This document shows positions 3,201 through 60,913 of a stretch of 64,000 nucleotides of DNA, piece after piece. The notes under the pieces were generated by a model, which was given only the letters and a program-made list of their open reading frames with translations, had not been told where the DNA came from and made no database searches. Each line of letters opens with the position of its first letter. Within the stretch, counting starts at the first letter, position 1. The position numbers and the translations under genes were made by a program. Origin of the DNA: an uncultured bacterium (GTDB lineage: Bacteria; Armatimonadota; Abditibacteriia; Abditibacteriales; Abditibacteriaceae); the NCBI GenBank assembly GCA_963843795.1, contig CAWJLW010000006.1, forward strand, positions 1,984,001-2,048,000, written 5' to 3'.

Positions 3201-3575
3201 CTGCGCTACGCGGCGTCGATGTCGCTGCAAGCCCAACGCAATCAGGACGCCGTGGATTTGGCGCGCGAAGCTTTTCAGCGCGCGACCTTCGATGATAGCC
3301 AACTTTGGTTGTGGCGCGAAAGCGCTTTTCTCTATGCGCGTGCTCTGGCAGCGAACGGCAATAACGACGAAGCACAAAAACGGCTCACCAATTTGAGCGC
3401 GGCGCGCTGGGAAACTTTCCAACGCGTGGCCGCCTTGCAAGACGCGGCACGTCTGGCGCGCGCCGATGGCAAAGAACCCGAAGCCGCGCGTTTGGAGGCG
3501 CAAATACAAGGCATGGGTGCGAGCGCTCAAGATATGGCTTCAGCTCAAAACTTTCTGCGCGGTTTGGACGGTTGA
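216..3575 (+). CDS. Large secreted protein: beta-rich (LolA-like) N-terminal region followed by TPR-like helical repeats
   Basis: 1119-aa ORF with a signal peptide (FSLCFLLLLCTFARA-Q) and Ala/Leu-rich TPR-like helices. The domain names are pattern-based guesses. Confidence 0.7.
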   Translation: MQVLAPRFSLCFLLLLCTFARAQNGADNWQKFLAPPELSPTNFLFTVQSNGDQAEGQLLLGQDGSWQVQVLAGPNPARAIIGNGKETRVVDNATKRVQRFDFDALNEWFRGFDVDNGGPANVWLRPSPQLVAQNYDVKMSSVGGQTVLDLTANARGRYLQREGVLVGGAGGGRYYAARKIPAWNRPYRIQLKFSAPQVLAMRTDFAPDNRVLQMLDYSYENARPKTITVRDADKRVLATWSYQWSTPDPTAPPGFVLPDAPIIEENTPGENFANQASQVWNQGVIQTRREDWRSALASFARAGQLAPAALAAPSAQFDAALQVRDTAATLDALAHIAKIAGDSDYETISRRLRWYSLQRDSTAARADLNALAADKTPRSQWLRATTWRTLGDQAAAVQAARETLDNPQTPASLAFDAAAFLIEIAPATLAAEIEKNTTNAPAHQIAARLLRNQVTPLSAAQLQENVTHVRALVLVARTLEARGEDTTTVWQKIVDTATTPLQQIAQRQLMALAAQRGDAPASLTIYTDLAGNLSDNDVASLQNYLFNAWDKSGNIEKLRVSMQNRAISVRAPSSDARLWLAYQQQYASAEEVANSLKTFALRFGGANVDGKTAAWWHSALAEYYTGQAETDSVSGTNSVRDTAYRNALTTIDKAIGADPATRFYQIQKDLISIRRASRTARISDAGTAVAEREAAQRALEHLRTLDPDDLDLQITSGIARVAMNKDTEQAIADFRGAIGGDVSSPGAQLNLHAAMLTARQGLASALLQNKDNAGALAEYGRLLDGARESVVESGVALNALNVFVPTHDAVGAAGLSARLVAAPWRWSDTQSLLGDWFSAVARRPEFLPAVRDALGKNSTAAAHLAAALIDFTLLENAQAKAAMPQATPETRVALNQVVALWQNSAQRVQQIAASDDPILSLQANALLAQDALTKRDYNTAATYYAAAIAREPLDLNLRLAYTSALAAAPANVENTDKIIAARDDYLLRAGRSVLNLRYAASMSLQAQRNQDAVDLAREAFQRATFDDSQLWLWRESAFLYARALAANGNNDEAQKRLTNLSAARWETFQRVAALQDAARLARADGKEPEAARLEAQIQGMGASAQDMASAQNFLRGLDG

Positions 3576-3608
3576 AGTGCGCTGCAAGTACTTGCAGCGC
3601 ACTTCAAC
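3571..3608. terminator. 38-bp perfect palindrome centred on the motif, between convergent genes
   Basis: GTTGAAGTGCGCTGCAAGT/ACTTGCAGCGCACTTCAAC. It contains both stop codons and has no clear U-tract. Confidence 0.6.
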
Positions 3609-4068
3609 GCGCGAATTTGACGATAATCACACGCAACGCCGAATCAATTTGTGCCAGTTCGTTCACTATGATTTCCAAAGCTTCGACTTCGCTAAAACTG
3701 CCCGCGCCCGAACCGATAATTGGTAAAGCCAGCGAGTTGTAATTGTGCTTTTCGGCCAAGGCGATGGCGTTGCGCACGCTGTGGCGAATCGAAAATTCCG
3801 ACGCGCGCCAGAAGCCATTAATTCCCGCTACATGAACAATACCGCGAAATGGCAATTGGCCCGCTGAAGTGTGAACCGCTTGGCCAAGCGGAATCGGGCC
3901 ATATTGGCCGATTTCTCGAAACGGCTGTAAGCCGCCGCGTTTTTTAATCGCGCCCGAAACGCCATGCGGCCACAACAGCCACCATGGAATAATGTTGCGA
4001 TTCCAAGCGTTCACAATGGCATCAACTTTTTGATTCAACAAATCGCCTTCAATGATTTCGGCTTTCAT
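3604..4068 (-). CDS. Macro domain (ADP-ribose-binding/processing) protein
   Basis: GDLLNQKVDAIVNAWN...GVSGAI...G..P.G.AV.T...SLALP.IGSG macro-domain motifs. Likely start is ATG 4068. Confidence 0.9.
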   Translation of the reverse strand: MKAEIIEGDLLNQKVDAIVNAWNRNIIPWWLLWPHGVSGAIKKRGGLQPFREIGQYGPIPLGQAVHTSAGQLPFRGIVHVAGINGFWRASEFSIRHSVRNAIALAEKHNYNSLALPIIGSGAGSFSEVEALEIIVNELAQIDSALRVIIVKFAR

Positions 4069-4164
4069 ATATTTTCCTGATTTCCGGGTGCAAGTACTTG
4101 CCATATCAGTTTGCCTGAACAACAGATTTACATTTCATTCTTCAATTTTCGATAAAGTATCTTC

Positions 4165-5775
4165 GTGACTAAATCATCCAACACGCGCCCGCTGCAAGCC
4201 GCCAAACTGCTGGCCGGTGCGTTTTTCTTATCCAAAATCATCGGTTTTGTGCAACTTACGCTTATCAAAGCGCTCTTGCCCGGCGGAGATGCCGATGCTT
4301 ATGTGGCCGCGTTTATTCTGCCTGATATTGTGAATTATCTGGTCGCGGGCGGCGCGCTTTCGGTCACCTTCATTCCAATTTTCAATGGTTTGCAGCAAGA
4401 TGGCGACGAGCGCGGCGCGTGGCGTTTTTTTTCGACGGTCGCCACATTGATGGGATTAGCTTTGCTGGTTTTTGTCACGCTGGGCGTGATTTTCACGCCG
4501 CAGTTGGTTGCCATCACCGCGCCCGGGCTGACCGAACCCGATAAAAAAGCCACTTTCGATTTGACCGTCGCCATGACGCGCGTGGTTTTGCCGTCGCAAT
4601 TATTTTTCTATCTGGGCGGTATGTTTGTCGGTGTCTTGAACGCGTTCAAGCGCTTTGCGGCTTCGGGCTTCACCAGCGTTTTAAACAACGTCATTGCCAT
4701 CGGCGCCGGTGTCGGATTGTGGTGGCTTTCCGGCGGCAGTCCGATGGGTTTCGCGTGGGGAATTTTGCTGGGCGCGCTGGGAGGCAATTTCGTGCTGCCA
4801 TTTTTGGCGCTTAAAAGCGGTCCAAAAGAGCATCGACTGCAATTCGGCTTGTCATTCGATTATAAGCAGCCCGCGGTAAAAAAGTTCTTCATCAACACCG
4901 TGCCGATTATGATTGGTGTTTCGCTCCCCGTCGTCGATCAAATTGTGGTGCGCTTCTTTTCGTCGGAATTTAGCGAAGGCGCAATGAGCAATCTGGCGAT
5001 GGGCAATCGCTTCATGGTGGCGCCATTGGCAGTTGTAGCACAAGCGGCAAGCGTGGCGGCGTTTCCTTATCTTGCCAGCGATTCGCACGCGCAGAACTGG
5101 CCCAAGTTCGCCGAATTTTTGCGCACCGGTTTGCGCCGTTTGATGTTTCTGACACTGCCGATGTCGATGTTGCTGATTTTGATTTCTCAGCCTTTATTGC
5201 GCTTGTTCGAATTCGGACAATTGAATCGTTTCAGCGCCGATCAGATCGCGGTTGCCTTCGCGTTTTACTGCGTGGGCTTGTTCGCGTGGGCCGGACAACA
5301 GTTCATTGCGCGCGGCTTTTACGCCCTGCAAGACACCCGCACTCCGACAATTATCGGCTCTTTATTAACCTTTTTCTTTTTTCTGCCGCTAACTTGGTTC
5401 ATGGCACGTTGGGGCATTTTGGGTCTGGCCCTCGCAACCAGTATTGGAGCGGGCGCCCATTTTGTCGCGATTACCTGTTTTCTCAGCAACCGACTGCGCC
5501 GTTACCCGTATCGAGCGCCGCTGCGTTTAATCGCGATTGTCGGCACTATGCTGCGGACGGGAACCGCGTGCGCAATTATGGCCATTGTCGGGCTAAGCGC
5601 CAATCGGCTGGCGCTGTGGGCGCTGGGCGATAACACTGGAAAAGGCAGCGAATTAGTGCGCATAATTTTCGTGACGGTGCTGGCGCTGTGGGCCTTTGGC
5701 AACGCAGCGACGCAATTTAACATTCCCGAATGGTTCTGGCTGCGTCAGAAATTCCTGCGGCGCAAAGGTACTTGA
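4165..5775 (+). CDS. murJ: Lipid II flippase MurJ (MviN)
   Basis: Many TM helices with DAYVAAFILPD...GGALSVTFIP and FYALQDTRTP signatures. Confidence 0.92.
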   Translation: MTKSSNTRPLQAAKLLAGAFFLSKIIGFVQLTLIKALLPGGDADAYVAAFILPDIVNYLVAGGALSVTFIPIFNGLQQDGDERGAWRFFSTVATLMGLALLVFVTLGVIFTPQLVAITAPGLTEPDKKATFDLTVAMTRVVLPSQLFFYLGGMFVGVLNAFKRFAASGFTSVLNNVIAIGAGVGLWWLSGGSPMGFAWGILLGALGGNFVLPFLALKSGPKEHRLQFGLSFDYKQPAVKKFFINTVPIMIGVSLPVVDQIVVRFFSSEFSEGAMSNLAMGNRFMVAPLAVVAQAASVAAFPYLASDSHAQNWPKFAEFLRTGLRRLMFLTLPMSMLLILISQPLLRLFEFGQLNRFSADQIAVAFAFYCVGLFAWAGQQFIARGFYALQDTRTPTIIGSLLTFFFFLPLTWFMARWGILGLALATSIGAGAHFVAITCFLSNRLRRYPYRAPLRLIAIVGTMLRTGTACAIMAIVGLSANRLALWALGDNTGKGSELVRIIFVTVLALWAFGNAATQFNIPEWFWLRQKFLRRKGT

Positions 5776-5864
5776 AAATCGTCACTGCAAGCACTTGCCC
5801 GAAAATGTGCGGCCCCAAATTTGCATTTATTGTCAATATCCCACAGTCGTATGGAGGTAAAACC

Positions 5865-6083
5865 ATGAGTTCTACTGAAGACAAAGTGCGTGGCACCGGC
5901 AACGAAGCCGTCGGCAACGTGAAACAAGCCATTGGTGATGCGACCGATAACGAGCAGATGCAGGCCGAAGGCCAGGCGCAGGAAACCAAGGGTGAGGCAC
6001 AAAAAGCGCTGGGCAATGCCAAAGACGCTATCGGCGATGCCTTACATAACGCGGGCGAAAAGCTCAAAGGCTCTGGCTCTTAA
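5865..6083 (+). CDS. CsbD family stress protein
   Basis: EDKVRG..NEAVGNVKQAIGDATDNEQMQAEG pattern. GGAGG RBS before ATG 5865. Confidence 0.9.
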   Translation: MSSTEDKVRGTGNEAVGNVKQAIGDATDNEQMQAEGQAQETKGEAQKALGNAKDAIGDALHNAGEKLKGSGS

Positions 6084-6111
6084 AATTGGACGCTGCAAGT
6101 GCTTGCAGACG

Positions 6112-6147
6112 AAAACGCGCCCTTCATTGGTTTGAAGGGCGCGTTTT
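6112..6147 (+). terminator. Conventional intrinsic terminator with no motif core
   Basis: AAAACGCGCCCTTCA-ttggtt-TGAAGGGCGCGTTTT downstream of the CsbD gene. Confidence 0.85.
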
Positions 6148-6220
6148 GTGTTAGTTTGCCTTCTGCAAGTACTTGCAGCACACTATCGAGTTCCTAACAA
6201 CCCCAGCAAGGAGTTTTCCG

Positions 6221-6991
6221 ATGAACGCGACGACGCCACAAGTTTTATCCGATGCGCAAAAAGCGCAATTTCACGACGAAGGTTACTGCATTTTGGAAGG
6301 CGTTATTTCAAGTGCGCAACTTGAAATGTTGCGCGAAGAATGCGCGCACTGGATTGCAGCAATGGACGCGGAAATGGATGCCAAAGGCGTAACCACTCTG
6401 GGCATCACGCACAAAGGAAATCGTTATTTTGTTAGCAATAAATGGCAGGAAAGCCCGCGTCTGCAAAGTTTTATCTGGAGCGAACTGATGACGGGCATTT
6501 GTCGCGACACGCTGGGCGAAAACGCGTTTTTATTTCACGAGCAATATGTAGTCAAAGCCGCCGAAAAAGGCATGAAATTCGGCTGGCATCAGGATTCGGG
6601 TTATGTCGGTCACGACCACAAGCCGTATCTCACTTGCTGGTGTACTTTGGATGATGTGAATGAGGAAAACGGCACGGTTTACATCCTGCCCTATGAGCGC
6701 GCGGGCACGCGCGCTTGGGTGCGCCACACAAAAGAAGAAGGCAGCAACGATCTCATCGGCTATAACGGCGACGATCCCGGCATTCCCGTAATTTGTCCTG
6801 CCGGAAGCATCGCGGTATTTTCCAGTACGACTTTTCATCGCAGCGGCCCCAACAAAACCGACCAAATGCGCCGCATTTACTTGCCCCAGTATTCCGCCGA
6901 ACCAATTACCAACCAAGCGGGCGACAAATTGTGGAATCATGCCGCGCCGGTTCTGGAAAACGGGAAAATCGTCGCGCCGCCCGCGGTTTAA
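6221..6991 (+). CDS. Phytanoyl-CoA dioxygenase (PhyH) family Fe/2OG dioxygenase
   Basis: WHQD motif, LTCWCTLDDVNEENG and HRSGPN..R. AAGGAG RBS. Confidence 0.9.
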   Translation: MNATTPQVLSDAQKAQFHDEGYCILEGVISSAQLEMLREECAHWIAAMDAEMDAKGVTTLGITHKGNRYFVSNKWQESPRLQSFIWSELMTGICRDTLGENAFLFHEQYVVKAAEKGMKFGWHQDSGYVGHDHKPYLTCWCTLDDVNEENGTVYILPYERAGTRAWVRHTKEEGSNDLIGYNGDDPGIPVICPAGSIAVFSSTTFHRSGPNKTDQMRRIYLPQYSAEPITNQAGDKLWNHAAPVLENGKIVAPPAV

Positions 6992-6994
6992 CTT

Positions 6995-7648
6995 ATGAAA
7001 CAACCGTTTCCCGGACGCATTACCGCGATTTCCGCACAGGCTCGTTTGCGGAGGCATCTGGGAACGCGCGTCAATATCTCAATCGACGGCGAATATTCCT
7101 TTTCTATCGATCAGGAATTGGCGATTAAGCGCGAATTGCGCATCGGTCACGTTTTAAGCGAAGCCGACTTGTCCGACCTTTTGAATGCCGACGGCGAAGC
7201 CAAAGCTCTCGCAAAAGCCTTGTTTTTCATGGGGTATCGGCCGCGTTCGACGCAGGAAGTGCGCGCGCGTTTGGAGCGCGACGAATGGCCCGATGAAGTT
7301 ATCGAGCGCGTATTACAACGTTTGCGAGAAGCGCGACTTTTGCACGATGCGACGTTCGCGGCCAATTGGGTGGAAAATCGTTCGCATTCCAAACCGCGCG
7401 GCGCGTATGCGCTGCGCCAAGAATTACGTCAGAAAGGCATTGCGCGCGACGACATCGAAGCCGCTCTACCCGATTCGGATCAGGAAAACGAGAATGCGCT
7501 GGCGGCGTTACGCAGCAAACTGCGTTCTTTTGAAAAGTATGAAGGCCGCGAGCGCGAACAGAAAATGATGGCGTTTTTACAACGTCGCGGCTTTAATTTT
7601 GGTGTAGCGCGCGCAGCGATTCGGGCCTTGGATGAAGAGGAGGAATAG
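6995..7648 (+). CDS. recX: Regulatory protein RecX
   Basis: RPRS..EVR.RL, D..FA..WV..R, G...LRQELRQKGI and FLQRRGF motifs. Confidence 0.92.
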   Translation: MKQPFPGRITAISAQARLRRHLGTRVNISIDGEYSFSIDQELAIKRELRIGHVLSEADLSDLLNADGEAKALAKALFFMGYRPRSTQEVRARLERDEWPDEVIERVLQRLREARLLHDATFAANWVENRSHSKPRGAYALRQELRQKGIARDDIEAALPDSDQENENALAALRSKLRSFEKYEGREREQKMMAFLQRRGFNFGVARAAIRALDEEEE

Positions 7649-7682
7649 AAAAGCGCGCTGCAAGTACTTGTAGCGCGCTTTT
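7649..7682. terminator. Bidirectional terminator built on a motif variant
   Basis: AAAAGCGCGCTGCAAGTACTTGTAGCGCGCTTTT (one mismatch) between convergent stop codons. Confidence 0.8.
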
Positions 7683-7935
7683 ATTGAATAATTTTCTTAT
7701 CTGCATCTTCTTTTTCGGTCGAAATTTTAGATTCGCCCCAGCGACTTTCACGCTTCCATAAAACGTAAGCGAGAAGCAGAAATGGCGAAATCGCAATCAA
7801 AATTTGCACCCCCAAATCGGTGACATGGAAATAATCGAAAATCACAAAACACAAGGCACCATATCCCATGATAATCAAGGGAAATATCACAAGTTGCCAA
7901 ATACCTTCGCCGACAAACTCGGTTAGAAACTTCAT
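7681..7935 (-). CDS. Small hypothetical membrane protein (2 TM)
   Basis: 84-aa ORF with two hydrophobic segments, filling the gap between recX and the next gene. Confidence 0.6.
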   Translation of the reverse strand: MKFLTEFVGEGIWQLVIFPLIIMGYGALCFVIFDYFHVTDLGVQILIAISPFLLLAYVLWKRESRWGESKISTEKEDADKKIIQ

Positions 7936-8043
7936 ATTTTGCCTTTGATTTCAATTCTCTCCACAAATCGCGTAGCAAGTACTTGCAGCGCCTTCGTCAA
8001 CCATTAAACTGCGCCCTGATTCCCATTTTTGGAGCTTAAACTT

Positions 8044-9078
8044 ATGAAGCAGTTACGCATTGGATTTATTGGTTCGGGCGGCATGGCCGACGCGCATCTC
8101 AAAGGTTTAGCGGATGCCGAACAGTTTCCCGAAGTGCAGCTTGCCGCGTTTTGCGACATCGCCATCGAACGCGCGCAGGCGCAGTGCGATAAATATCCCG
8201 AACATAACCCGACCGCTTACGCTTCGCCGCAAACCATGATCGCCGAAGCCGGTTTGGATGCGTGCTACGTTTTACTGCCGCCGTTCGCGCATGGTGACGC
8301 CGAGCGCGCTTGCATCGAGGGCCATGTACCGTTTCTGACTGAAAAGCCGATTGGCCTCGATCTAGGTTTATTGCGCGAATTGCGCGATGAAGTGAAAAGC
8401 CAAAATTTGATGGCCGCAGCGGGTTACATGAATCGCTATCAGCCCTCAGTCAAGCGCGCCAAAGAAGCGATGAGCAGCGATGAAGCGGTGTTAGCTTACG
8501 GTTGGTGGCTGGGCGGGCCGCCGTTGCAGCGCGAAGGCAAAACTCCCTTCATTATGCAATGGTGGGCCAAAAAAGAGCGCAGTGGTGGGCAATTTCACGA
8601 ACAAGTCACGCATACCGTAGACTTGGCGCGCTATTTTCTGGGCGATGCGGTCGAAGTTTTCGCGCACGCCACGACCAGTTTTAATCATAAATTGTCCAAC
8701 TTGGTCGAAGGCTACAATATCGATGACGCTCTAACGACCAGTATCAAGTTTAAAAACGGCGCGATTGCGTCGTTGATGGCCTCAGTCGCTACACCGGTGG
8801 GTGGCAATATCACTCTAGATATTTACGGTACCAAAAGCACGGTCAAGTTTTCCGGCTGGGGCCACGACGCGACGATCATGCGCCAAGACGAAGAACCCGA
8901 AATCGTCAAAAGCGCGGGCGAAATTTTCGCTATCGAGGATCGTGCATTTCTGGACGCGGTGCAAACTGGCGATGCGAGAAAAATCCTGGCGCCCTATGTC
9001 GATTCGTTCAAAACTGCGCAGATTACGATTGCCGCCAATCAAAGCGCGCAAAGCGGCAAGCCGGTTGAAATCGATTAA
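8044..9078 (+). CDS. Gfo/Idh/MocA family oxidoreductase
   Basis: IGFIGSGGMA Rossmann fold, EKP motif, H..DLAR. Confidence 0.92.
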   Translation: MKQLRIGFIGSGGMADAHLKGLADAEQFPEVQLAAFCDIAIERAQAQCDKYPEHNPTAYASPQTMIAEAGLDACYVLLPPFAHGDAERACIEGHVPFLTEKPIGLDLGLLRELRDEVKSQNLMAAAGYMNRYQPSVKRAKEAMSSDEAVLAYGWWLGGPPLQREGKTPFIMQWWAKKERSGGQFHEQVTHTVDLARYFLGDAVEVFAHATTSFNHKLSNLVEGYNIDDALTTSIKFKNGAIASLMASVATPVGGNITLDIYGTKSTVKFSGWGHDATIMRQDEEPEIVKSAGEIFAIEDRAFLDAVQTGDARKILAPYVDSFKTAQITIAANQSAQSGKPVEID

Positions 9079-9162
9079 TTTGCTCAATTACCGGCATGCG
9101 TCTTGCCGAATTTCTCGGTCAAATGCTGCTGCAAGTACTTGCAAAGCACGAGGAGAAAAATT

Positions 9163-9660
9163 ATGAGCGAAGATAAAAAACACGATATTGAAAAAGTCAA
9201 TGAACTGATTCAAGACATTGAAATTGCGATGTTGACCACGATAGACGAAAACGGCGATTTGCATGCGCGCCCAATGGCAACGCAAAAAGCTGATTTCGAC
9301 GGCGAAATCTGGTTTTTCACCGATGCCAATTCGCATAAAGTCGATGAAATTAAGGAAGATCAGCGCGTAAACGTCAGCTATTCTTCACCAGGTGGCAACA
9401 GTTTCGTGTCGATTTCGGGCACGGCGAAATTAGTCACGGATAAAGCCAAAATCGAGGAATTGTATACACCCGCTCTCAAAGCCTGGTTTCCCGACGGGAC
9501 GGACACGCCCGGCATCGCGCTGCTGAAAATTACAGCAGAAAGCGCGCAATATTGGGACGCACCCAACAATGCAATTGTCAAATTGGCTGGTTTCGTGAAA
9601 GCAACCGCGACCGGCGAGCGCTATCAACCCGGCGAAAACGAAAAAGTGCAAATTAAATAA
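9163..9660 (+). CDS. Pyridoxamine 5'-phosphate oxidase-like general stress protein
   Basis: IAMLTT...LHARPM...IWFFT...K..EI and AWFPDG. AGGAG RBS. Confidence 0.9.
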   Translation: MSEDKKHDIEKVNELIQDIEIAMLTTIDENGDLHARPMATQKADFDGEIWFFTDANSHKVDEIKEDQRVNVSYSSPGGNSFVSISGTAKLVTDKAKIEELYTPALKAWFPDGTDTPGIALLKITAESAQYWDAPNNAIVKLAGFVKATATGERYQPGENEKVQIK

Positions 9661-9680
9661 ACGCCAAACGCGACAAAACC

Positions 9681-9714
9681 AAACCGCGTGCATCCAAACG
9701 ATGCGCGCGGTTTT
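9681..9714 (+). terminator. Conventional intrinsic terminator
   Basis: AAACCGCGTGCATC-caaac-GATGCGCGCGGTTTT after the stop at 9660. Confidence 0.75.
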
Positions 9715-9746
9715 ACATTGTCAGGTTCACCAGCGCTGGGTTGAAT

Positions 9747-11162: not shown

Positions 11163-11170
11163 AACCGATT

Positions 11171-13330: not shown

Positions 13331-13364
13331 AAAAGCGCCCTGCAAGTACTTGCAGGGCGCTTTT
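13331..13364. terminator. Bidirectional terminator; 34-bp perfect palindrome on the motif
   Basis: AAAAGCGCCCTGCAAGTACTTGCAGGGCGCTTTT between convergent genes. Confidence 0.85.
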
Positions 13365-15089: not shown

Positions 15090-15142
15090 GTTTTGACCTC
15101 GTAATAATTGATAGTAAGTGCTGCAAGTACTTGCAGCACCAG

Positions 15143-22445: not shown

Positions 22446-22477
22446 AAACTGTGCTGCGAGTACTTGCAGCACAGTTT
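22446..22477. repeat. 32-bp near-perfect palindrome on a motif variant, in a divergent promoter region
   Basis: AAACTGTGCTGCGAGTACTTGCAGCACAGTTT. Confidence 0.85.
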
Positions 22478-30849: not shown

Positions 30850-30885
30850 AAAAATGCCCGCGCAGGTACTTGCGCGGGCATTTTT
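30850..30885. terminator. Terminator on a motif variant
   Basis: AAAAATGCCCGCGCAGGTACTTGCGCGGGCATTTTT downstream of the FKBP stop. Confidence 0.8.
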
Positions 30886-31974: not shown

Positions 31975-32107
31975 TTTTACTCCTGTGAGCGGCGCATATT
32001 GCCAGAAGACCATGGCAAGTACTTGCGGGCCGCAAAATACTCAATCTATTTTAACTGATGCGTGCAACACAAATAAAAGCGCCGCAAGTACTTGCGGCGC
32101 ATCAAAT

Positions 32108-36194: not shown

Positions 36195-36228
36195 AAAAGC
36201 GCGCTGCAAGTACTTGCAGCGCGCTTTT
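36195..36228. terminator. Bidirectional terminator; 34-bp perfect palindrome on the motif
   Basis: AAAAGCGCGCTGCAAGTACTTGCAGCGCGCTTTT between convergent genes. Confidence 0.85.
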
Positions 36229-40444: not shown

Positions 40445-40480
40445 AAAAAGCGTCCTGCAAGTACTTGCAGGACGCTTTTT
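40445..40480. terminator. Bidirectional terminator; 36-bp perfect palindrome on the motif
   Basis: AAAAAGCGTCCTGCAAGTACTTGCAGGACGCTTTTT. Confidence 0.85.
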
Positions 40481-42313: not shown

Positions 42314-44194
42314 ATGGCAACCAAAAAAAGAAGTAAAACACCCAATCCGGCGCTCGCTCCCAAAGTGACACACAGTCACGAGCTGATTGGCGCGGCGATA
42401 GAATTGGGCACCATTTTGCGCACCGCCAAAATCGAACCCGCCTTGCGCTCGCGCGTAATCGGTGCCATTATCGCAGCGCTTGCCCAAAGCGAAATCAACT
42501 CAGCGCCAAAATTTGCTTTGCAATCTATCAATCTGGGATTAGAGAAAACTATCCATAGTTTCAAACATTGCGATTTACAAAAACAAAGCAATCTAATTGA
42601 TGCTCTCACGCTCTCGGGTGCCGCTTTCGCCAATCTCCCGCCCTGCGTCGCTTCGATTGTGGCGATTTTAGAAAAATTGAATGTGCGCGTTTTGTTACAA
42701 ACCGATACCGATTTTCTGGGAATGTTTTATGAAGCATTTTTGCGTTACGGCTCTGATAACAATGCTCTGGGCGTCGTGTTCACGCCCCGCCACATCACAC
42801 GTTTTTGCGTGGAATTGGCCGACGTTGGCCCTAAAGATCGCGTGATTGACATTGCTTCGGGTACTGGCGGTTTTTTGGTGGCCGCGTTCGATACGATGAT
42901 GGCGCAAGCGAAAACGCCAAAGATGCGCGAGAAAATCAAAAATGCTCTGACGGGCTTTGATACTAATCCGACGGTATGGGCGCTGGCTTCATTGAATATG
43001 TTTTTTCGCGGCGATGGCAAGAGTCATATTCAGTTGGGAAGTTCGTTAGAACAACAGCATAGAGACGAAGTTGCCGGTCGTTTCACGCGCGCGTTTCTTA
43101 ATCCGCCCTTTTCACAGCGCGGCGAACCCGAACGAGATTTTCTCGACGCTTCAATGAATGCTTTAGAACCCGAAGGCCTTTTAACGGCTGTGGTCGCGGC
43201 GGGCATTTTCGCCGATGATGAACATAAAAACTGGCGCGTGCGCTTTCTCAAAAATCATTCGCTGCTGGCAATGATTAATTTACCGGACGATTTGTTTTAT
43301 CCCACCGCCGCGCCATCTTCGTTATTGGTCGCGCGCGCTCATGTGCCGCAAGATTCAGCAGCACCCGTGATGTTAGCGCGAGTTTGGAATGATGGCTTTG
43401 AAAAAACAAAAGGCCGCCGTATCGATCGTGAGGGCAGCCAACTCCCCGAAATCAAAAGGGCTTACCGCGCACTGCAAAATGGCAAAAACATAAATTCCGA
43501 ATTTGCGACTATTGTTCCAGGGGCAGCAATTCAAAACGGCGCAGAATGGAGCGCGCAGCAGCATTTGCCGCAGCCAAAACTTTCACCAGACGAATTACGA
43601 GAACAGCAAAGTGCGGTGCAGAAATCTATTTATCAAGCCATCGCTCAAATGCCAGAACTGGCCGATATTATCAGCGAAAATTTCACTGAGCACTGGGCGT
43701 ATCAAGACGCTTTGGCGTTAAATCTTCAAGGTACAATTGAAGATTTTTTCACGGTCGAAACCGGGCGTTCCTTGGGTGAAAAGAATTATCTTGATGGAAC
43801 ATTGCCTTATATTTCCAGCGGTGACAGTTTCAATAGCATTGTGCGCTTAGTCGAAGGCGATAGAACGCAAATTATAAATGATGCCGCGATCACAGTCACA
43901 GCGTTTGGAAAAGCGTGCGTGCAGCCGTGGCCGTTTCTGGCGCGCGGCAATGGTGGCAGCGCGGTACGCGTGTTGCGCCCGAATTTTGCGATGAATTTTC
44001 GAGAACTGGTGTGGTTTGCCGCACAAATCAACGCCCACAAATGGCGCTTTTTTTATGCGCGCATGGCGATCAAATCGCGTCTGGAACGTTTGATAGTGTG
44101 CAGTCCAAGCGTTCAAATGCCAGATGAGTGCAATTTGGCCGCTAACGTTCGTGCATTTAAAAACTCGCTCGACGAATATAGTCGCATTGATTAA
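42314..44194 (+). CDS. N6-adenine DNA methyltransferase (HsdM / type IIG-like) with a fused C-terminal specificity domain
   Basis: GVVFTPRHI, motif I DIASGTGGFL, motif IV NPPF, and a C-terminal TRD-like segment (LPYISS...ITV...VRVLRP). Confidence 0.85.
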   Translation: MATKKRSKTPNPALAPKVTHSHELIGAAIELGTILRTAKIEPALRSRVIGAIIAALAQSEINSAPKFALQSINLGLEKTIHSFKHCDLQKQSNLIDALTLSGAAFANLPPCVASIVAILEKLNVRVLLQTDTDFLGMFYEAFLRYGSDNNALGVVFTPRHITRFCVELADVGPKDRVIDIASGTGGFLVAAFDTMMAQAKTPKMREKIKNALTGFDTNPTVWALASLNMFFRGDGKSHIQLGSSLEQQHRDEVAGRFTRAFLNPPFSQRGEPERDFLDASMNALEPEGLLTAVVAAGIFADDEHKNWRVRFLKNHSLLAMINLPDDLFYPTAAPSSLLVARAHVPQDSAAPVMLARVWNDGFEKTKGRRIDREGSQLPEIKRAYRALQNGKNINSEFATIVPGAAIQNGAEWSAQQHLPQPKLSPDELREQQSAVQKSIYQAIAQMPELADIISENFTEHWAYQDALALNLQGTIEDFFTVETGRSLGEKNYLDGTLPYISSGDSFNSIVRLVEGDRTQIINDAAITVTAFGKACVQPWPFLARGNGGSAVRVLRPNFAMNFRELVWFAAQINAHKWRFFYARMAIKSRLERLIVCSPSVQMPDECNLAANVRAFKNSLDEYSRID

Positions 44195-44198: not shown

Positions 44199-44230
44199 AA
44201 AGCGCGCTGCAAGTACTTGCAGCGCGCTTT
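44199..44230. terminator. Bidirectional terminator; 32-bp perfect palindrome on the motif
   Basis: AAAGCGCGCTGCAAGTACTTGCAGCGCGCTTT between convergent genes. Confidence 0.85.
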
Positions 44231-51005: not shown

Positions 51006-51051
51006 ACGTATAAAAGCCCGCTGCAAGTACTTGCAGCGGGCTTTTATACGT
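51006..51051. terminator. 46-bp perfect palindrome on the motif (terminator)
   Basis: ACGTATAAAAGCCCGCTGCAAGT/ACTTGCAGCGGGCTTTTATACGT. Confidence 0.85.
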
Positions 51052-51969: not shown

Positions 51970-52013
51970 AACGAAAAATGTTCCTGCGAGTACTTGCAGG
52001 AACATTTTTCGTT
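51970..52013. terminator. Bidirectional terminator; 44-bp palindrome (one mismatch) on a motif variant
   Basis: AACGAAAAATGTTCCTGCGAGTACTTGCAGGAACATTTTTCGTT between convergent genes. Confidence 0.85.
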
Positions 52014-53064: not shown

Positions 53065-53208
53065 GGTTTTTCCTTTGTGTTTTCAGCCGTCGCGCACCAT
53101 TTTAGCAACCTTTTGTTTCGCCCGCGTTAAATTAGCAAGCTGCAAGTACTTGCAGTGAGCTGCAGGCGCGATAAGCTAAGGTTACAAATTCAGCAGCGAG
53201 GATAATTC

Positions 53209-54213
53209 ATGAAATGTATTCTGACCGGTTTGGGTGGACGCGGACGCCACTGGCTGAGCATCTTGAACCAGCGAGATGATGTCGAAGTCGTAGCCGCCGT
53301 CGAGCCATTTGAAACTAATCGCCAGCGCGCCATCGACGACAACGCAATTGATGCCGAACGCATTTTTCCAACTTTAGAAGAAGCCATCGCCAAAAGCAAT
53401 GCCGACTTTGTCATGGACGTGACGCCCCCCAAAGTGCATCATGAAATCGCTCTACAAGCTTTCGCTTCCGGCTTACACGTTCTGGGCGAAAAGCCGCTTT
53501 CCGACGATTTCGAGACCGCAAGAAAAGTTGTGCAAGCGGGTAAAAGCGCGGGCGTGACGCACATGATTACGCAAAATTATCGTTTCGGCGCGCAGCCGCG
53601 CACTACACGGCAAGTACTTGCCGACGGTTTAATCGGCAAGCCCGGACAGTGCGACGTGCGTTTTGCGATGCCGTGGGCCGATCAGCCGGGAAGCCATTAT
53701 GTCACCGAGCCTTATATGATGATTAATGACATGATGGTGCATCATTTCGATTTGATGCGCTACGTTCTCAACGACACGCCGCAAACCATTCAAGCGATTA
53801 CGTGGAATCAGCCGTGGGGATGGCATCAGGGCGATTCGTGTCACGCAATTGTCGTGGAATGGAAGTCCGGCCTGCACGCGACGCACGTTTGCATCGCGTG
53901 CGCGAATGGCAGTCAGACTTCGTGGAACGGCGATTGGTCAATCCAAGGTCCGAACGGTTCGATTGATTGGGACAAAGAAGGCACATGGCATTCGCATTTG
54001 CATCGCACGGACAACAAAGTTGAACGCCAGCGCATCGCGCATTTGGATGTGAAGCCACAAGCCGAAGCAATGGTAGACGAATTTTTTGATTCGATTCGTG
54101 AAAATCGCGAACCCGAATGCTCGGCCCAAGACAATCTACAATCGCTCGCGATGGTTTTCAGCGCTATTGAAAGCGCCCAAAGCGGGCGCAAAGTCGAGAT
54201 AGCAAGGGTTTGA
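53209..54213 (+). CDS. Gfo/Idh/MocA family oxidoreductase
   Basis: GLGGRG, EKPL, QNYRF and HHFDL. Confidence 0.92.
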   Translation: MKCILTGLGGRGRHWLSILNQRDDVEVVAAVEPFETNRQRAIDDNAIDAERIFPTLEEAIAKSNADFVMDVTPPKVHHEIALQAFASGLHVLGEKPLSDDFETARKVVQAGKSAGVTHMITQNYRFGAQPRTTRQVLADGLIGKPGQCDVRFAMPWADQPGSHYVTEPYMMINDMMVHHFDLMRYVLNDTPQTIQAITWNQPWGWHQGDSCHAIVVEWKSGLHATHVCIACANGSQTSWNGDWSIQGPNGSIDWDKEGTWHSHLHRTDNKVERQRIAHLDVKPQAEAMVDEFFDSIRENREPECSAQDNLQSLAMVFSAIESAQSGRKVEIARV

Positions 54214-54246
54214 GTTTCTTTCTCACATTCTGCGCATTATCCCATT

Positions 54247-56346
54247 ATGCAACAGTTATTCTCACCTATCCAACTCGAAACTCTGCGCGCCCTTTGGCAG
54301 CGCTTGATTCCCACCGATGAACAATGGCCCGGTGCCTTACAAAATGGCGTCGAGAATTATCTCGAACGCCAATTGAACGGCCAATTACAAGACCAGTTAC
54401 CGCTTTATCGCAACGCTCTAGACGCTTTGGAAACCCGCGCGCAAGAAGATACACAGCAAAGTTTCGCGTCGCTGGAAGCCAATCGTGCCGACGAATTACT
54501 GCACGAAATAGACTCTTCAAAAGGTGACAATTCGTTGCGCGATTGGCTTCGTTTGGCCATCAACCACACGATGGAAGGCTTTTACAGCGACCGGAGCAAC
54601 GGCGGCAATTCAGAACATTTGTCGTGGCAAATGACCGGGTTCATGCGCAACAGCGAACCGGCCACTTCGCCCGATACTCTGCAATTCTGGGCACAAAATG
54701 ATCCGCAAGTACTTGCAGACACTTACGACGCAATCATTATCGGCGCGGGCGCGGGCGGCGGCGTTTCAGCGTGCATTCTTAGCGAAGCGGGCCACCGAGT
54801 TCTGGTTTTAGAACGCGGGCGCGATCTCAGTTTCGAGGATATTCACCACGATCATTTGCGTTCACAACGGATGTCACTTTACGGCCATAATGCTGGCCCA
54901 AGCGACGAACATCCGCGCGTCGCAGAAGACGATAAACGCACTTTCACCATGCTACCGTGGCAAGGCGGCTACAGCAACAACGCCGCGTGCGTCGGCGGCG
55001 GCACGCGCGTTTATGGCGCACAGGCGTGGCGTTTCATGGCGCAAGATTTCCGCATGGCCTCGCATTATGGCGTGCCAGAAAATTCATCTCTCGCCGATTG
55101 GCCGCTGAGCTACGATGACCTCGCGCCATTTTATGAGCGCATCGAAAACGAACTTGGCGTCTGCGGTTCGGGCGCGCGCATGACAGGTCACACACAACGC
55201 CGCGGCGATTATCCGATGCCTCCACTTGCGCCAACCGCGAAAACGCGTTTTTTGCAAGGCGGCGCCGATAAACTGGGCTGGCCGACTTTTCCCGTTCCCC
55301 TCGCGATTAATTCCGTCCCTTATGGCGGACGCGGCGCCTGCATTCGCTGTACAGAGTGCGTCGGTTTCGCTTGTCCGACTGCAGCCAAAGCCGGTTCGCA
55401 CAACACGTTTTTACCGCGCGCGCTTCGTGCGGGCGCGACTTTAGTGACTGGAGCAATGGTCGCGCGTATCGAATGCGATTCTCAAGGCAAAGCCATCGGC
55501 GTGGAATGGCTGCAACACGACGGCGACAACTGGCAGAGCCGCACCACGCGCGCAAAAATGATTTTGTGTGCCAGTGGCGCGATTGAAACCGCGCGTTTGT
55601 TGTTGAATTCCGCCACGCCACAAGAACCCAACGGTCTGGGCAACGCGCACGACCATGTCGGACGCAATTTGCAAGGCCATTTATATGCGGGCGCATGGGG
55701 CGTGACAGAAGAACGTGTCAATAACAACGAAGGGCCGGGCGTTTCGATTTCTACCAATCGATGGAGCCACGACAACGACGGCATTATTGGCGGCGGAATG
55801 TTGGCAGACGACTTTCTCAAGCCGCCAATCGAATTCTGGCGCAACGCGCTGCCGCCGGAGTTAACACGTTGGGGCACCGAAAACAAAAACTGGATGCGCG
55901 ACAATTATCAGCGCACGCTGCAAGTCGCCGGGCCGATTCAAGAAATTCCTAACCCGGAAGCGCGCGTGCGCCTTGACCCAAATGTGCGCGATGCTTGGGG
56001 CATTCCAGTAGCGCACCTGAGTGGCGTGGCGCATTCGGCATCGGTCGAGGCCGCCGATTTTCTGCGCCATCGCGCCGAAGAATGGCTCCAAGCCAGCGGC
56101 TGTCATCGCGTGTGGAGCTACGCACCGGGCACTTATTTATCGGGAGGTCAGCATCAGGCCGGAACCTGTCGCATGAGCGAACGCGCAGAAGATGGCGTGT
56201 GCGATAAATTCGGGCGCGTGCATGGCCACGATAATCTATTTTTGGTCGACAGTTCAGTTCACGTCACCAATGGCGGCTTCAATCCGTTCCTCACAGTAAT
56301 GTCACTCTCGGCGCGCTGCGCGGAGAATATTGTGGCACAAGGGTAA
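54247..56346 (+). CDS. GMC family oxidoreductase fused to an N-terminal gluconate 2-dehydrogenase subunit-3-like domain
   Basis: N-terminal LIP.D...PGA....EGFY.D...GGN....W...GF, then GAGAGG, VGGGT, C..C..C...C and HQAGTCRM. Confidence 0.9.
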   Translation: MQQLFSPIQLETLRALWQRLIPTDEQWPGALQNGVENYLERQLNGQLQDQLPLYRNALDALETRAQEDTQQSFASLEANRADELLHEIDSSKGDNSLRDWLRLAINHTMEGFYSDRSNGGNSEHLSWQMTGFMRNSEPATSPDTLQFWAQNDPQVLADTYDAIIIGAGAGGGVSACILSEAGHRVLVLERGRDLSFEDIHHDHLRSQRMSLYGHNAGPSDEHPRVAEDDKRTFTMLPWQGGYSNNAACVGGGTRVYGAQAWRFMAQDFRMASHYGVPENSSLADWPLSYDDLAPFYERIENELGVCGSGARMTGHTQRRGDYPMPPLAPTAKTRFLQGGADKLGWPTFPVPLAINSVPYGGRGACIRCTECVGFACPTAAKAGSHNTFLPRALRAGATLVTGAMVARIECDSQGKAIGVEWLQHDGDNWQSRTTRAKMILCASGAIETARLLLNSATPQEPNGLGNAHDHVGRNLQGHLYAGAWGVTEERVNNNEGPGVSISTNRWSHDNDGIIGGGMLADDFLKPPIEFWRNALPPELTRWGTENKNWMRDNYQRTLQVAGPIQEIPNPEARVRLDPNVRDAWGIPVAHLSGVAHSASVEAADFLRHRAEEWLQASGCHRVWSYAPGTYLSGGQHQAGTCRMSERAEDGVCDKFGRVHGHDNLFLVDSSVHVTNGGFNPFLTVMSLSARCAENIVAQG

Positions 56347-56353
56347 AAAGAAG

Positions 56354-56395
56354 GGTAGAAAGCGCGCTGCAAGTACTTGCAGCGCGCTTTCTACC
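56354..56395. terminator. 42-bp perfect palindrome on the motif (terminator)
   Basis: GGTAGAAAGCGCGCTGCAAGT/ACTTGCAGCGCGCTTTCTACC. Confidence 0.8.
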
Positions 56396-56429
56396 GATAA
56401 ATCGACAAAGCTAATTAAAGTCGACGGTT

Positions 56430-56927
56430 ATGGACAAGTTTCCATTTTTTTATGCGTGGCATGGCCGCTGGACAGGTGGCGATTGGTTCTACAAAATTTA
56501 TATCGCGCCCCACGCTTTGTACGGAGCCGTCATCGGCAATCAGTTTCCCCTGCCAGCCGAAACAGCTTCCATCCAGATTCAGCCGGTGGAGCCCAAAAAT
56601 TGGCTGGCATCGTGGAACAGTTCGCTGTTCTATCAGGTAGATGAAATTCATCGTCCACTCGAAAACTTTTATGATTCTTTAGAGCCTGATAACCTGGAAT
56701 TATTGACAACAGATGCACGCAACTTTTGTTTCGTGCGTGAACAAATCAAAGAAATTCGCTTCAGTCCGCGTTTTCATTGGTGGACGTTTCCAACACTCAA
56801 TAGTGGCACAATGCACATCCACTTGCACGACCAAAAGAAATTATGGTTCGTCATTCAGAAAAATCAGAACACGCGCGCCATCGCCAATCAGGTTCAAACC
56901 GTCACCCCAAATATCAAGATCAAATAA
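56430..56927 (+). CDS. Hypothetical protein
   Basis: 165-aa ORF filling the gap, with no recognisable motif. Confidence 0.6.
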
Positions 56928-56951
56928 TCGCGCTGCCAGTGCTTGCGATAC

Positions 56952-57005
56952 GAAAAGCCAAAAATGCCCGCTGCAAGTACTTGCAGCGGGCATTTTTGGC
57001 TTTTC
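56952..57005. terminator. 54-bp perfect palindrome on the motif (bidirectional terminator)
   Basis: GAAAAGCCAAAAATGCCCGCTGCAAGT/ACTTGCAGCGGGCATTTTTGGCTTTTC. Confidence 0.88.
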
Positions 57006-57014
57006 TATTGGAGA

Positions 57015-58485
<1,471 letters not shown>

Positions 58486-58513
58486 GGATTTTTCTCCTCG
58501 AAATCAATCGTTC

Positions 58514-58529
58514 ATCAAGATATTATGAT
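58514..58529. promoter_or_regulatory. Candidate SahR operator
   Basis: ATCAAGATATTATGAT, an ATCA-N8-TGAT dyad between the divergent ahcY and ArsR-methyltransferase genes. Confidence 0.5.
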
Positions 58530-58556
58530 AAATTGATGAGTAGGTCAACAACTATT

Positions 58557-59483
58557 ATGGAATTATTGAAAATTATTCGCGTGTTGGGCGATGCCAATCG
58601 CGTGCGTTTGCTACATTTATTGTCGGTCGAGGAATTGAGCGTGGCAGAATTGCAGGAAATCATGGGCATGGCGCAAAGTCGAATTTCGATGCAATTGTCG
58701 CAATTGAAAGCGGCGGAGTTGGTCGAACTGCGTCGCGTCGGGCAGAAAAGTTTGTATCGTGCTGCGCCCTTAGCGAGCGATGCTTTGGTGAATGAATTGT
58801 TAGAGCGCGGCGCGCTGGAAATTGCGGAGAGCGCGCACGATGAGGAAGGTTTGCGTTTGGTTTTGGCGCGGCGCAAGGACGCTTTGCGCCATCATTTCGA
58901 CGAATTGGCGGGGCGTTTCGGGCGCGATCATCTGCCGGGCCGCAGTTGGAAAGCCCTTTCGGAAGGCTTGCTGCGCTTGCTGCCACCCATGGAAATCGCC
59001 GATTTGGGCGCCGGTGAAGCGACGATGGCGCTGCTTTTGGCACAGCGCGCCACACGCGTCGTGGCGATTGATAACGCGCAGAAAATGGTGGAATATGGAC
59101 GCAAGTTGGCGGTGGAAAATGGCGTGCAGAATTTGGATTATCGGCTGGGCGACATGGAAGAATTGCCGCTGAACGATGCGGAAATGGATTTGGTTTTGAT
59201 GCACCAAACCTTGCATCACAGCCTCCATCCAGCGATTGCTTTAAAGGAAGCCGCGCGGGTTTTGCGCGCGAATGGGCGCGTGGTAATTTTCGATTTGCTG
59301 CGTCACGAATACGAAGCAGCGCGCGAATTATACGCCGATGTGTGGCTGGGCTTTTCGCAAGTCGAGTTGCGGCAAATGCTATCAGACGCGGGCTTTGTGG
59401 ACACTGAAGTTTCGGTGGTGGATCGCGAAGGTCAGGCGCCCTATTTTCAGACAATTTTGGCGATTGGGCGCAAGCCAGCCTAA
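58557..59483 (+). CDS. sahR: ArsR-family HTH fused to a SAM-dependent methyltransferase-like domain (SahR type)
   Basis: LGD.NR.R.L..L...EL.V.EL......Q.RIS HTH and DLGAGE SAM motif. Divergent from ahcY. Confidence 0.8.
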   Translation: MELLKIIRVLGDANRVRLLHLLSVEELSVAELQEIMGMAQSRISMQLSQLKAAELVELRRVGQKSLYRAAPLASDALVNELLERGALEIAESAHDEEGLRLVLARRKDALRHHFDELAGRFGRDHLPGRSWKALSEGLLRLLPPMEIADLGAGEATMALLLAQRATRVVAIDNAQKMVEYGRKLAVENGVQNLDYRLGDMEELPLNDAEMDLVLMHQTLHHSLHPAIALKEAARVLRANGRVVIFDLLRHEYEAARELYADVWLGFSQVELRQMLSDAGFVDTEVSVVDREGQAPYFQTILAIGRKPA

Positions 59484-59649
59484 GAAAAGCGAAGCGCAAG
59501 TACTTGCAGCGGGGTTTACCCTGCTCGCTTGATTCCATCAGCGATCTTGCTAAATTCAAAAACGCCATTGAAAGTTAGATTCGCGGCCACGTCATCTCTC
59601 ACCTCTAACTCATCGGCATCCCCACATCCAAAACAACCACTGCAAGTAC

Positions 59650-59678
59650 TTGCACCAGCGCGCTACTCCATCTATACT
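59650..59678 (+). promoter_or_regulatory. Candidate sigma70-type promoter for recA
   Basis: TTGCAC (right arm of a motif copy), 17-bp spacer, TATACT; about 60 bp before the recA ATG. Confidence 0.5.
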
Positions 59679-59739
59679 ATCGCTATCATTGAGGACAATG
59701 AAACCGATTCGATAAATCAATTGAGAGAGGAAAAAAGAT

Positions 59740-60858
59740 ATGGCACGCGAAAAGACAGGGCCGAGTAAAGTGGAGCAGGCGATTGCCAGCGCCAACGGCA
59801 GCAACAGCGACAAAATGAAATCGCTGGACGAAGCCGTTTTGCGCATGGAAAAAACTTTTGGCAAAGGTTCGATCATGCGTTTGGGCGAGCGCACACATAT
59901 GCAGGTCGATACCACACCGACCGGAAGCTTAAGTTTGGACGTGGCTTTGGGCGGCGGTTTGCCGCGCGGTCGCATGGTGGAAATTTTCGGTGCCGAAGGT
60001 GGCGGAAAGACGACGCTGGTTTTACATTGTATCGCCGAAATGCAAAAGTCGGGCGGCATCTGCGCTTTCATCGACGCCGAGCACGCGCTCGACCCGAAAT
60101 ACGCCAAAACTCTGGGCGTCGATATCGATAACTTGTTTATTTCGCAGCCGGACAACGGCGAGCAAGCCCTGGAAATTGCCGATACTTTAGTGCGTTCGGG
60201 CGCGATTGACATGGTCGTCATCGACTCTGTTGCCGCTCTCACACCGCGCGCGGAAATCGAAGGGGAAATGGGCGACTTGCAGGTCGGCGCAATGGCGCGC
60301 ATGATGAGCCAAGGTTGTCGCAAATTGGCTTCGTCCGTTGGTCGCGCCAATGCGACAGCGATTTTCATTAACCAGATTCGTGAGAAAATTGGCGTGATGT
60401 ATGGCTCGCCCGAGACCACACCAGGTGGTCGCGCCCTGAAATTTTTCGCCAGCGTTCGTATGCGCGTCAGTCGCGGAGAGCAGATGAAAGACGGAACCGT
60501 GCCGATTGGCAACCGCACCAAAGTGCGCGTTGATAAGAACAAAATTGCGCCGCCGTTCCGCGAAGCCGAATTCGATTTGATTTACGGCAAGGGCATCAAC
60601 AAATACGGCGACATTTTGGATTTGGCGGTTGGCAAAGGCCTGATTCAAAAAGGCGGCGCGTGGTTCACGGTCGGAGAAGAACGTTTTCAAGGCCGCGACA
60701 ACGTGCGTCAGTATTTGGAAGAAAATCCCGAATTCGCCGATGATCTGGAAAACCAGATTCGCATCGCGTATGATTTGCGCCCTGTCGGCGAAAAAGTTCC
60801 GGTTTCGCCCGATGCTGATAAAGACGACGAAGAATTTAGCGAAGACGACGACGCGTAA
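59740..60858 (+). CDS. recA: Recombinase RecA
   Basis: [34 protein letters not shown] and IFINQIR.KIGV.YG.PETT.GG.ALKF. Confidence 0.98.
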
Positions 60859-60875
60859 ATCGTGTTGGTCGGAAA

Positions 60876-60913
60876 CAAAAATCCCGCTGCAAGTACTTGC
60901 AGCGGGATTTTTG
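60876..60913. terminator. Bidirectional terminator; 38-bp perfect palindrome on the motif
   Basis: CAAAAATCCCGCTGCAAGTACTTGCAGCGGGATTTTTG between convergent genes. Confidence 0.85.

Follow-up and report, generated by a model that had tools for sequence, protein, structure and literature searches.

In Neisseria, 54–57% of the predicted intrinsic terminators contain the DNA uptake sequence (DUS), and pairs of this word are found in one orientation in 226 cases as compared to 5 in the other (PMC1852404). Transcript 3'-end data confirm that uptake sequences have been co-opted into terminators (PMC13714241), and within the Neisseriaceae the word exists in dialects around a small core (PMC3630211). 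A different line of work concerns inverted repeats, where template-switch correction is the accepted explanation for the excess of perfect repeats (PMC5941160), and in primates hairpins are created by template switching in one step (10.1101/2023.04.19.537475). Here we describe palindromes that bring the two subjects together, found in the genome of an uncultured bacterium of the family Abditibacteriaceae (phylum Armatimonadota, GenBank assembly GCA_963843795.1). They were noticed in a stretch of 64,000 nucleotides (contig CAWJLW010000006.1, positions 1,984,001 to 2,048,000, below called the window), and they are centred on the self-complementary 12-mer GCAAGTACTTGC. We consider it probable that they are intrinsic terminators with the 12-mer as their tip, and that their arms have been evened out by template switching which also acts on hairpins without the 12-mer. 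The best reading is that two known phenomena, uptake-type terminators and template switching, are combined in a new geometry and a new lineage.

The 12-mer is a tag of the whole genome. The 4.3 Mb genome that holds the window (G000; the other G numbers are relatives in the Abditibacteriaceae) has 2,567 exact copies as compared to 0.3 expected, and variants with one mismatch number only 506. By our own hexamer-based gene caller, which gave 3,460 genes and 86% coding sequence and to which family names were added, 751 copies are located in predicted genes, 1,258 in tandem, 290 in convergent and 264 in divergent gaps, and 4 at contig edges; 70% are intergenic. The coding copies (n=751) are divided 494/141/116 between the frames. 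On both sides the preferred flank of the 12-mer is AG, followed by a GC-rich run and by T at outward positions 8–10. The same preference is seen in the 1,024 intergenic copies that lack long arms and in 630 copies deep inside coding sequence, and at the latter T at outward positions 9–10 amounts to 35–38%, as compared to 23–24% in frame-matched controls. Furthermore, copies spaced 18–130 bp apart show a 10.5-bp phasing (n=258, Rayleigh p=3e-13). Conserved flanks and helical phasing would be expected if a protein reads the site as double-stranded DNA, and the leading guess, which we give about an even chance, is that this protein is an uptake-sequence receptor.

In the literature searched, with subscription papers and supplements outside the coverage, the exact 12-mer was found in no paper, and nothing was found on it or on such terminators in the Abditibacteriaceae. 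A scan of genome contigs with a 16-mer gave at least 36 single matches in diverse genomes and was uninformative, and a scan of viral sequences gave six loci with a single copy of the 12-mer each and no motif-rich phage. It was also possible to observe 45 motif pairs 12–13 bp apart in the genome, many of which are terminator hairpins with two motifs. Two stretches of about 26 kb are free of the motif (G000:C6:56010-82495 and 517680-543429); the second has a lower GC content, 49%, a homopolymer run of 289 bases and a tRNA-Ala near its end, and is possibly acquired DNA.

Perfect palindromes on the exact 12-mer number 643 of at least 22 bp, 477 of at least 30 bp, 130 of at least 40 bp and 45 of at least 50 bp, and the longest in the genome is 78 bp. 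Of the 290 convergent sites 181 have arms of at least 15 bp, and the corresponding numbers are 267 of the 1,258 in tandem gaps, 20 of the 264 in divergent gaps and 8 of the 751 inside coding sequence; a copy of the 12-mer is found in 276 of the 467 convergent gaps. Behind the 3,452 gene ends examined there are 949 predicted terminators, and in 544 of them the motif is exactly at the apex, although a convergent hairpin may be counted twice in these numbers. A hairpin search made without gene calls gave a motif at the apex in 384 of 609. The 544 predicted terminators have a mean energy of -20 to -22 kcal/mol, a 12-bp stem and a 4-nt loop, and in convergent gaps 92% of the motif stems are free of wobble or mismatch. 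Among the long-armed tandem sites, the downstream T-tract is longer than the A-tract upstream in 136 cases, and the opposite is seen in 93 (p=0.005). A GC-rich stem, a short loop, a U-tract after the stop codon, enrichment in convergent gaps and a polarity that follows transcription are all features of intrinsic terminators, and judging from these the palindromes are likely to be intrinsic terminators, often working in two directions. As in Neisseria, the word is thus present in more than half of the predicted terminators, 57% as compared to 54–57%. Contrary to the DUS and to the uptake signal sequence (USS) of the Pasteurellaceae, where two copies form the stem, the word here is a palindrome and one copy forms the tip of the hairpin.

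The symmetry does not stop where termination would need it to. In a comparison of sites that are symmetric through the T-run, with the expectation taken from shuffled partners, symmetry continues for at least 5 nt past the T-tract at 59 of 207 sites as compared to 1.2 expected (convergent sites 38 of 99, expected 0.8; tandem sites 21 of 108, expected 0.4), which is 40–50 times the shuffled expectation and bears out what had been noted for several copies in the window. Past the first mismatch, matches fall at once to the background rate, 0.22–0.31 as compared to 0.27–0.30 for shuffled partners (448 sites). The arms are also specific to their locus, as 410 of the 477 long palindromes have distinct sequences. 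They look as if they were copied from their partner at the DNA level. Sharp-ended, locus-specific and perfect arms fit template-switch copying, and it is likely, to go by this pattern, that they have been equalised by template switching during replication, a process that would also act on hairpins without the motif. All-or-none arms that are perfect past functional need are likewise seen in the repeats known to be corrected by template switching, where hairpins are perfected in single events. What differs is that template switching is inferred here from the pattern only, and the scale: the short inverted repeats of E. coli had arms below 20 bp (PMC5941160), while perfect repeats with arms of at least 20 bp number 205 in the 4.3 Mb of G000 and 0 in a 350-kb sample of E. 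coli.

The preliminary description had proposed that the motif nucleates the symmetrisation and that the terminators are a by-product of it. In such a scheme a nick, or a replication fork stalled by a protein, at the 12-mer would be followed by fold-back synthesis outwards. Our comparison with motif-free terminators does not support this. Of 384 hairpins with the motif, 63 extend at least 5 nt past the tract, as do 15 of the 129 without it (p=0.2); at least 3 nt are reached by 100 and 27 of the same hairpins (p=0.29), and when hairpins with equal A- and T-runs are compared the numbers for 5 nt are 63 of 229 and 15 of 59 (p=0.87). A count based on genes, which is small, leans towards the motif (28 of 115 motif and 5 of 42 motif-free hairpins). 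The 15 extended motif-free hairpins should be seen against 0.5 expected, and in eight relatives without a dialect of the AGTAC type, described below, 4 of 46 hairpins are extended as compared to 0.6 expected. The motif thus supplies most of the hairpins of this genome, and the polishing, seen also in hairpins without the motif and in relatives without a dialect, has the look of something general that may extend over the whole family. Perfect arms of at least 20 bp occur 47.7 times per Mb in G000, 6.0 times when only its motif-free arms are counted, 7.3 times in the eight relatives, 5.3 times in a 379-kb sample of Neisseria and 0 times in E. coli. The baselines for extension are small, 0 of 13 hairpins in the 350 kb of E. 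coli, of which 1 has equal runs, and 0 of 18 in the Neisseria sample.

There is, nevertheless, a modest excess at the motif, limited to the longest arms and to equal A/T runs. Extensions of at least 8 nt are about three times as common at motif hairpins (35 of 384 as compared to 4 of 129, p=0.03) and equal runs are also commoner (229 of 384 as compared to 59 of 129, p=0.008), both p-values being uncorrected for multiple testing. At the deep-coding copies, symmetry of at least 5 nt is present in 2.5% of 630 as compared to 0.6% for shuffled partners. Template switching in E. coli is raised by protein roadblocks (PMC7202029), and a protein bound to the motif could therefore add such an excess. 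An orphan adenine methyltransferase that is conserved in the family also speaks for a process directed by the motif, as does the abundance of GTAC, which is very high in some of the family genomes and close to zero in others. Against this, in 1,024 of the 1,812 intergenic copies the symmetry goes no more than 2 bases outside the 12-mer, long arms follow the gene-end context and not the presence of the motif, none of the 74 sampled sites of one relative with a dense palindromic dialect (G012) is extended, and 21 of 26 relatives have the methyltransferase, among them those nearly without GTAC. No motif-specific nicking enzyme was identified. On balance a process directed by the motif seems rather improbable.

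The arms could instead be the result of selection on the RNA only, where longer perfect stems would be favoured for termination in two directions or for protection of the transcript, and would be reached through compensatory point mutations. The strong enrichment in convergent gaps agrees with this, and so does the observation that mismatches in tandem stems are slightly more often G-T than A-C (25 as compared to 13, p=0.07). Bases past the U-tract are, however, not part of the terminated transcript, and pairing in the RNA cannot easily select them, so the mirrored bases found there far above chance, one-way sites included, are difficult to account for. Compensatory mutation would also not be expected to give symmetry that ends abruptly with no residual pairing, nor convergent stems so seldom interrupted by wobble or mismatch. 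We regard RNA-level selection alone as improbable. A further count of G-U against A-C pairs, taken from the list of predicted terminators, was set aside because the terminator finder favours G-U.

A mobile palindromic element put at gene ends by a transposase was also considered. Repetitive extragenic palindromes (REP) with their associated transposases (RAYT) and miniature inverted-repeat transposable elements (MITEs) are short extragenic palindromes, and like them the palindromes described here are short and located near gene ends, with most copies of the 12-mer intergenic. A weak match to a Y1 transposase is also present in G000 (E=4e-7). However, there is no common full-length sequence, the commonest being found 14 times, target-site duplications are not in excess (for 4-mers, 1 as compared to 2.0 expected), no transposase tracks the motif, and the bare 12-mer is present at all the coding sites mentioned above. 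The Y1 locus itself has only 2 copies in 3.2 kb, and G006, which has a dialect, gave no Y1 match while G010, which has none, gave 11. The mobile-element explanation is thus largely refuted, and we find it very improbable.

That the palindromes are artefacts of the assembly or of fold-back in long reads is hardly credible, since the same design is found in independent assemblies of other organisms (the metagenome loci L037-L069, G001 and G009) and the positions follow gene ends and gene orientation, even if the assembly has likely indels (an extra base at window position 57303, which shifts the ahcY frame and is missing from a short-read contig, and one at G000:C6:2529270, where mutS is split over two frames) and the contigs of runs X1-X3, which are fragmentary and of which the best-matching run is perhaps the source sample, do not bridge a whole palindrome in any of the pieces listed. 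At 56354-56395 a short-read contig is identical to the palindrome as far as 56382, 8 nt past its centre.

The reading we favour, terminators tipped by the 12-mer and evened out by template switching, can be put as a series of steps. The 12-mer serves as a tag with flanks that are GC-rich and then carry a T-tract 8–10 nt out, even inside genes, and a DNA-binding protein would read it. Because the 12-mer is its own reverse complement and has an A-tract and GC on one side and GC and a T-tract on the other, a single copy is a ready-made hairpin. Behind a stop codon such a copy has the shape of a hairpin with a GUAC loop, and selection would keep it as a terminator. At replication the strand may then fold back and copy one arm over the other, by which mismatches would be erased, and the symmetry would be carried beyond the T-tract, up to the point where the polymerase switches back. 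The outcome would be perfect arms that are sharp-ended and specific to each locus.

Several observations weigh against this reading. Among 26 paralogous pairs that could represent the state before and after, none was informative and no copying event was found, and no difference was seen between the replichores, where the events cannot be polarised. The G-T excess over A-C mismatches in tandem stems is only small (25 as compared to 13, p=0.07). We know of no uptake sequence that is a palindrome, and comEC is present in 27 of 27 family genomes irrespective of dialect, so that competence genes do not track the dialects. No uptake receptor was identified, though no search for a receptor was made. 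The palindromic dialects of G009 and G012 are equally dense and have few long palindromes with the word at the apex, which suggests that the co-option differs by lineage. Finally, the gene positions rest on a simple gene caller of our own and on an assembly that bears indels.

Homologues of one G000 protein carry the names of Abditibacterium utsteinense (77% identity), Abditibacteriaceae and Armatimonadota, by which the organism belongs in or beside the Abditibacteriaceae. The word changes from genome to genome within the family. The exact 12-mer is found only 0–3 times per genome in 26 relatives, and we sampled 12 family genomes, 60–115 kb each, for words of their own. G001, of the same genus, has the dialect CAAAGTACTTTG, which forms the tip of palindromes as long as 60 bp, with arms of at least 11 bp at 7 of 62 sites. 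The dialect of G009 is TCGAGTACTCGA, with 11 of 248 sites extended, and that of G012 is GAGTACTC, where none of the 74 sampled sites has an 11-bp arm. In G006 the word, AGTACGGTCGA, is not palindromic. Its 242 sites in 260 kb (loci L142-L144 and L229-L238) include 73 close pairs (146 of the 242 sites), and all 73 have the same inverted orientation and the same spacing, and A- and T-tracts are often found with them. The words of G000, G001, G009, G012 and G006 all share the core AGTAC. In 6 of the 12 sampled genomes no dialect word was found. Two others of the 12, G007 (L104-L107) and G016 (L145-L147), in which GTAC is nearly absent, have a weaker, unrelated and non-palindromic word around CAGCCACG, possibly another class of dialect. 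Outside this sampling G015 and G019 are AGTAC-rich by count. The 12-mer itself is dense, with the same palindromes, in 33 metagenome loci (L037-L069) that are about 65–80% alike to G000; these contigs were chosen by a 22-mer, and their palindrome density is therefore inflated. Five of the loci, with MWW-prefixed names (L046, L060, L062, L063 and L066), have the 12-mer and the same terminator-like palindromes, but G000 proteins gave no match in them, so that they are not placed in a lineage. When coding DNA of the metagenome relatives is aligned, the 12-mer is exact at 4 of 14 and 4 of 11 sites as compared to 2.7% for random 12-mers, numbers which are too sparse to build on. Two short words, GGWCC and CTAG, rank with the most strongly depleted 5-mers and 4-mers, respectively, of every family sample examined, and in G012 (L135-L138) and G021 (L148-L150) a word repeated 45–59 times, probably from CRISPR arrays, dominated the k-mer lists.

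Taken together, about 1,000 or more conserved copies that include coding frames, dialects with a common core and helically phased flanks are what characterises words of the DUS type. The system resembles the DUS and USS in its thousands of conserved copies, its AT-rich extended flanks and its core-sharing family dialects (PMC1852404, PMC3630211, PMC13714241), and the one-sided orientation of the G006 pairs is similar to that of Neisseria. It differs in belonging to another phylum and in the much higher density of its long perfect arms, and we do not class it as a DUS. It also resembles HIP1 of the cyanobacteria, a hyper-abundant short palindrome with lineage variants and an orphan DNA methyltransferase (PMC4390886, PMC5861425). 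HIP1, in contrast, has 8 bp as compared to 12, and the 12-mer is largely intergenic and linked to terminators, a word that is absent from PMC5861425; here a methyltransferase is only a candidate reader. This candidate, a beta-class adenine methyltransferase of the orphan type (PF01555), is encoded at G000:C6:2517365-2518135 (L166), and its orthologues in the relatives (L196-L216) have 56–75% identity. RAGTACY occurs about 2,800–4,700 times per genome in 6 of 28 genomes, at most 31 times in 14, and in between in 8. The methyltransferase is found in all three groups, and the likeness to HIP1 is thus a lead only. Among the genes of G000 are also one for a comEA-type helix-hairpin-helix protein and 58 of the prepilin type.

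Missing repair genes were considered as a cause of the long palindromes and are not supported. Homologues of sbcD, xseA and rho occur in G000, and each of the three turned up in all 5 genomes in which it was looked for, and mutS matches in 27 of 27 family genomes, 24 of them above the cut-off, with the split mutS of G000 probably due to an assembly indel; mutL, exonuclease I and sbcC were outside the search. The preliminary description had also pointed to the instability of long palindromes without spacers. Instability caused by SbcCD concerns much longer palindromes. One study of SbcCD reportedly used a palindrome of 460 bp (PMC4245961). In the accessible part of PMC7999016 no length threshold for palindrome instability is given.

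In the window, a scan for palindromes centred on GCAAGTACTTGC, with at most 2 substitutions tolerated in the motif, gave exactly 15 of 22–54 bp, of which 11 are perfect and 4 carry a single mismatch, which agrees with the earlier estimate of about 15 symmetric copies. All are centred on the 12-mer or a variant with one base changed, and they lie in 9 convergent, 5 same-strand and 1 divergent context. As a control the window was randomised 40 times with a third-order Markov model, and the 40 sequences together contained 5 palindromes of at least 22 bp, none of them longer than 22 bp. The window has 40 exact copies of the 12-mer between 218 and 63935, of which 14 are in coding frames (the 56952 site included), 14 in tandem, 6 in divergent and 6 in convergent gaps. 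The seven stretches first cited as examples, those starting at 3571, 40445, 51006, 51970, 56354, 56952 and 60876, are all palindromes at the coordinates given for them, 6 of them perfect and that at 51970-52013 with one mismatch within the motif, and the seven arm types named (GCGCGC, GCGCCC, GCGTCC, GCCCGC, ATCCCGC, ATGTTCC and ACTGTGC) are all present. The term loop-less is correct for the DNA, but in RNA a 4-nt GUAC loop is predicted in 4 of 4 motif hairpins folded.

The convergent palindromes are found at the following places. The 38-bp perfect palindrome at 3571-3608 has both predicted stop codons inside it as mirror images; such equal distances are seen at 7 of 200 convergent sites, which is not above neighbouring offsets. 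At 7649-7682 a 34-bp palindrome with one motif mismatch abuts the recX stop and is convergent with a short predicted open reading frame. Perfect palindromes of 34, 34 and 36 bp lie at the 3' ends of dnaJ (13331-13364, a predicted bidirectional terminator), the pyruvate carboxylase gene (36195-36228) and mntR (40445-40480), and one of 32 bp (44199-44230) lies 3' of a gene for an N-6 DNA methylase (PF02384). This methylase, at 42314-44194, has 626 amino acids, and its neighbours are unannotated. The phosphofructokinase gene ends at the 44-bp palindrome 51970-52013, and recA is followed by a perfect one of 38 bp (60876-60913). The longest in the window, 54 bp and perfect (56952-57005), is located at the 3' end of ahcY and appears to be within its frame because of the extra assembly base; the corrected stop is near 57015.

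Of the tandem palindromes, that of 36 bp with one motif mismatch at 30850-30885 (minus strand) is 3' of the gene for an FKBP-type isomerase, and the perfect ones of 46 bp (51006-51051) and 42 bp (56354-56395), both on the plus strand, are 3' of the genes for an aldo-keto reductase and a GMC oxidoreductase; the symmetry of the former goes 6 nt beyond the T-run. The 22-bp perfect palindrome at 32079-32100 (minus strand), 3' of a GGDEF gene, has a T-tract on the transcribed minus strand only, and is thus a predicted one-way terminator. Most copies are at positions typical of terminators, but the general label of bidirectional terminators does not hold for all. A 32-bp palindrome with one motif mismatch (22446-22477) lies between divergent genes on the upstream side of glnD, which is not a gene-end position, and the 22-bp perfect palindrome in the hrcA/grpE gap (15118-15139), between genes on the same strand, has no T-tract and is probably no terminator. 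Of the two motif-free controls proposed earlier, 6112-6147 (plus strand) is indeed a perfect hairpin, with 15-bp arms and a 6-nt loop when 6106-6153 is folded, while the coordinates of the other, 9681-9714, are off by one, and inspection of the sequence shows an imperfect repeat with a 5-nt loop. Scans of the window for Rfam families and tRNA genes gave no matches.

These results extend the link of uptake-type sequences to terminators past Neisseria and the Pasteurellaceae. Within the family there is a pattern in how the word is used, a palindromic word standing singly at the tip of the hairpin (G000, G001) and a non-palindromic one being used as an inverted pair (G006). It is conceivable, although we consider it unlikely, that the Abditibacteriaceae are a third lineage with a code for self-DNA, written in palindromic dialects of AGTAC, and that a protein bound to the motif, possibly together with the methyltransferase, stalls or nicks the DNA so that copying of the hairpin polishes the terminators. 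If this is true, copying at the self-code would make and polish terminators continually, on a scale unseen in the E. coli sample. In any case, with its hundreds of perfect arms that end sharply, the genome is a natural record, and an unusually large one, of what are likely to be template-switch events, and together with a few close strains this record would yield the rates, tract lengths and strand bias of template switching in a wild bacterium.

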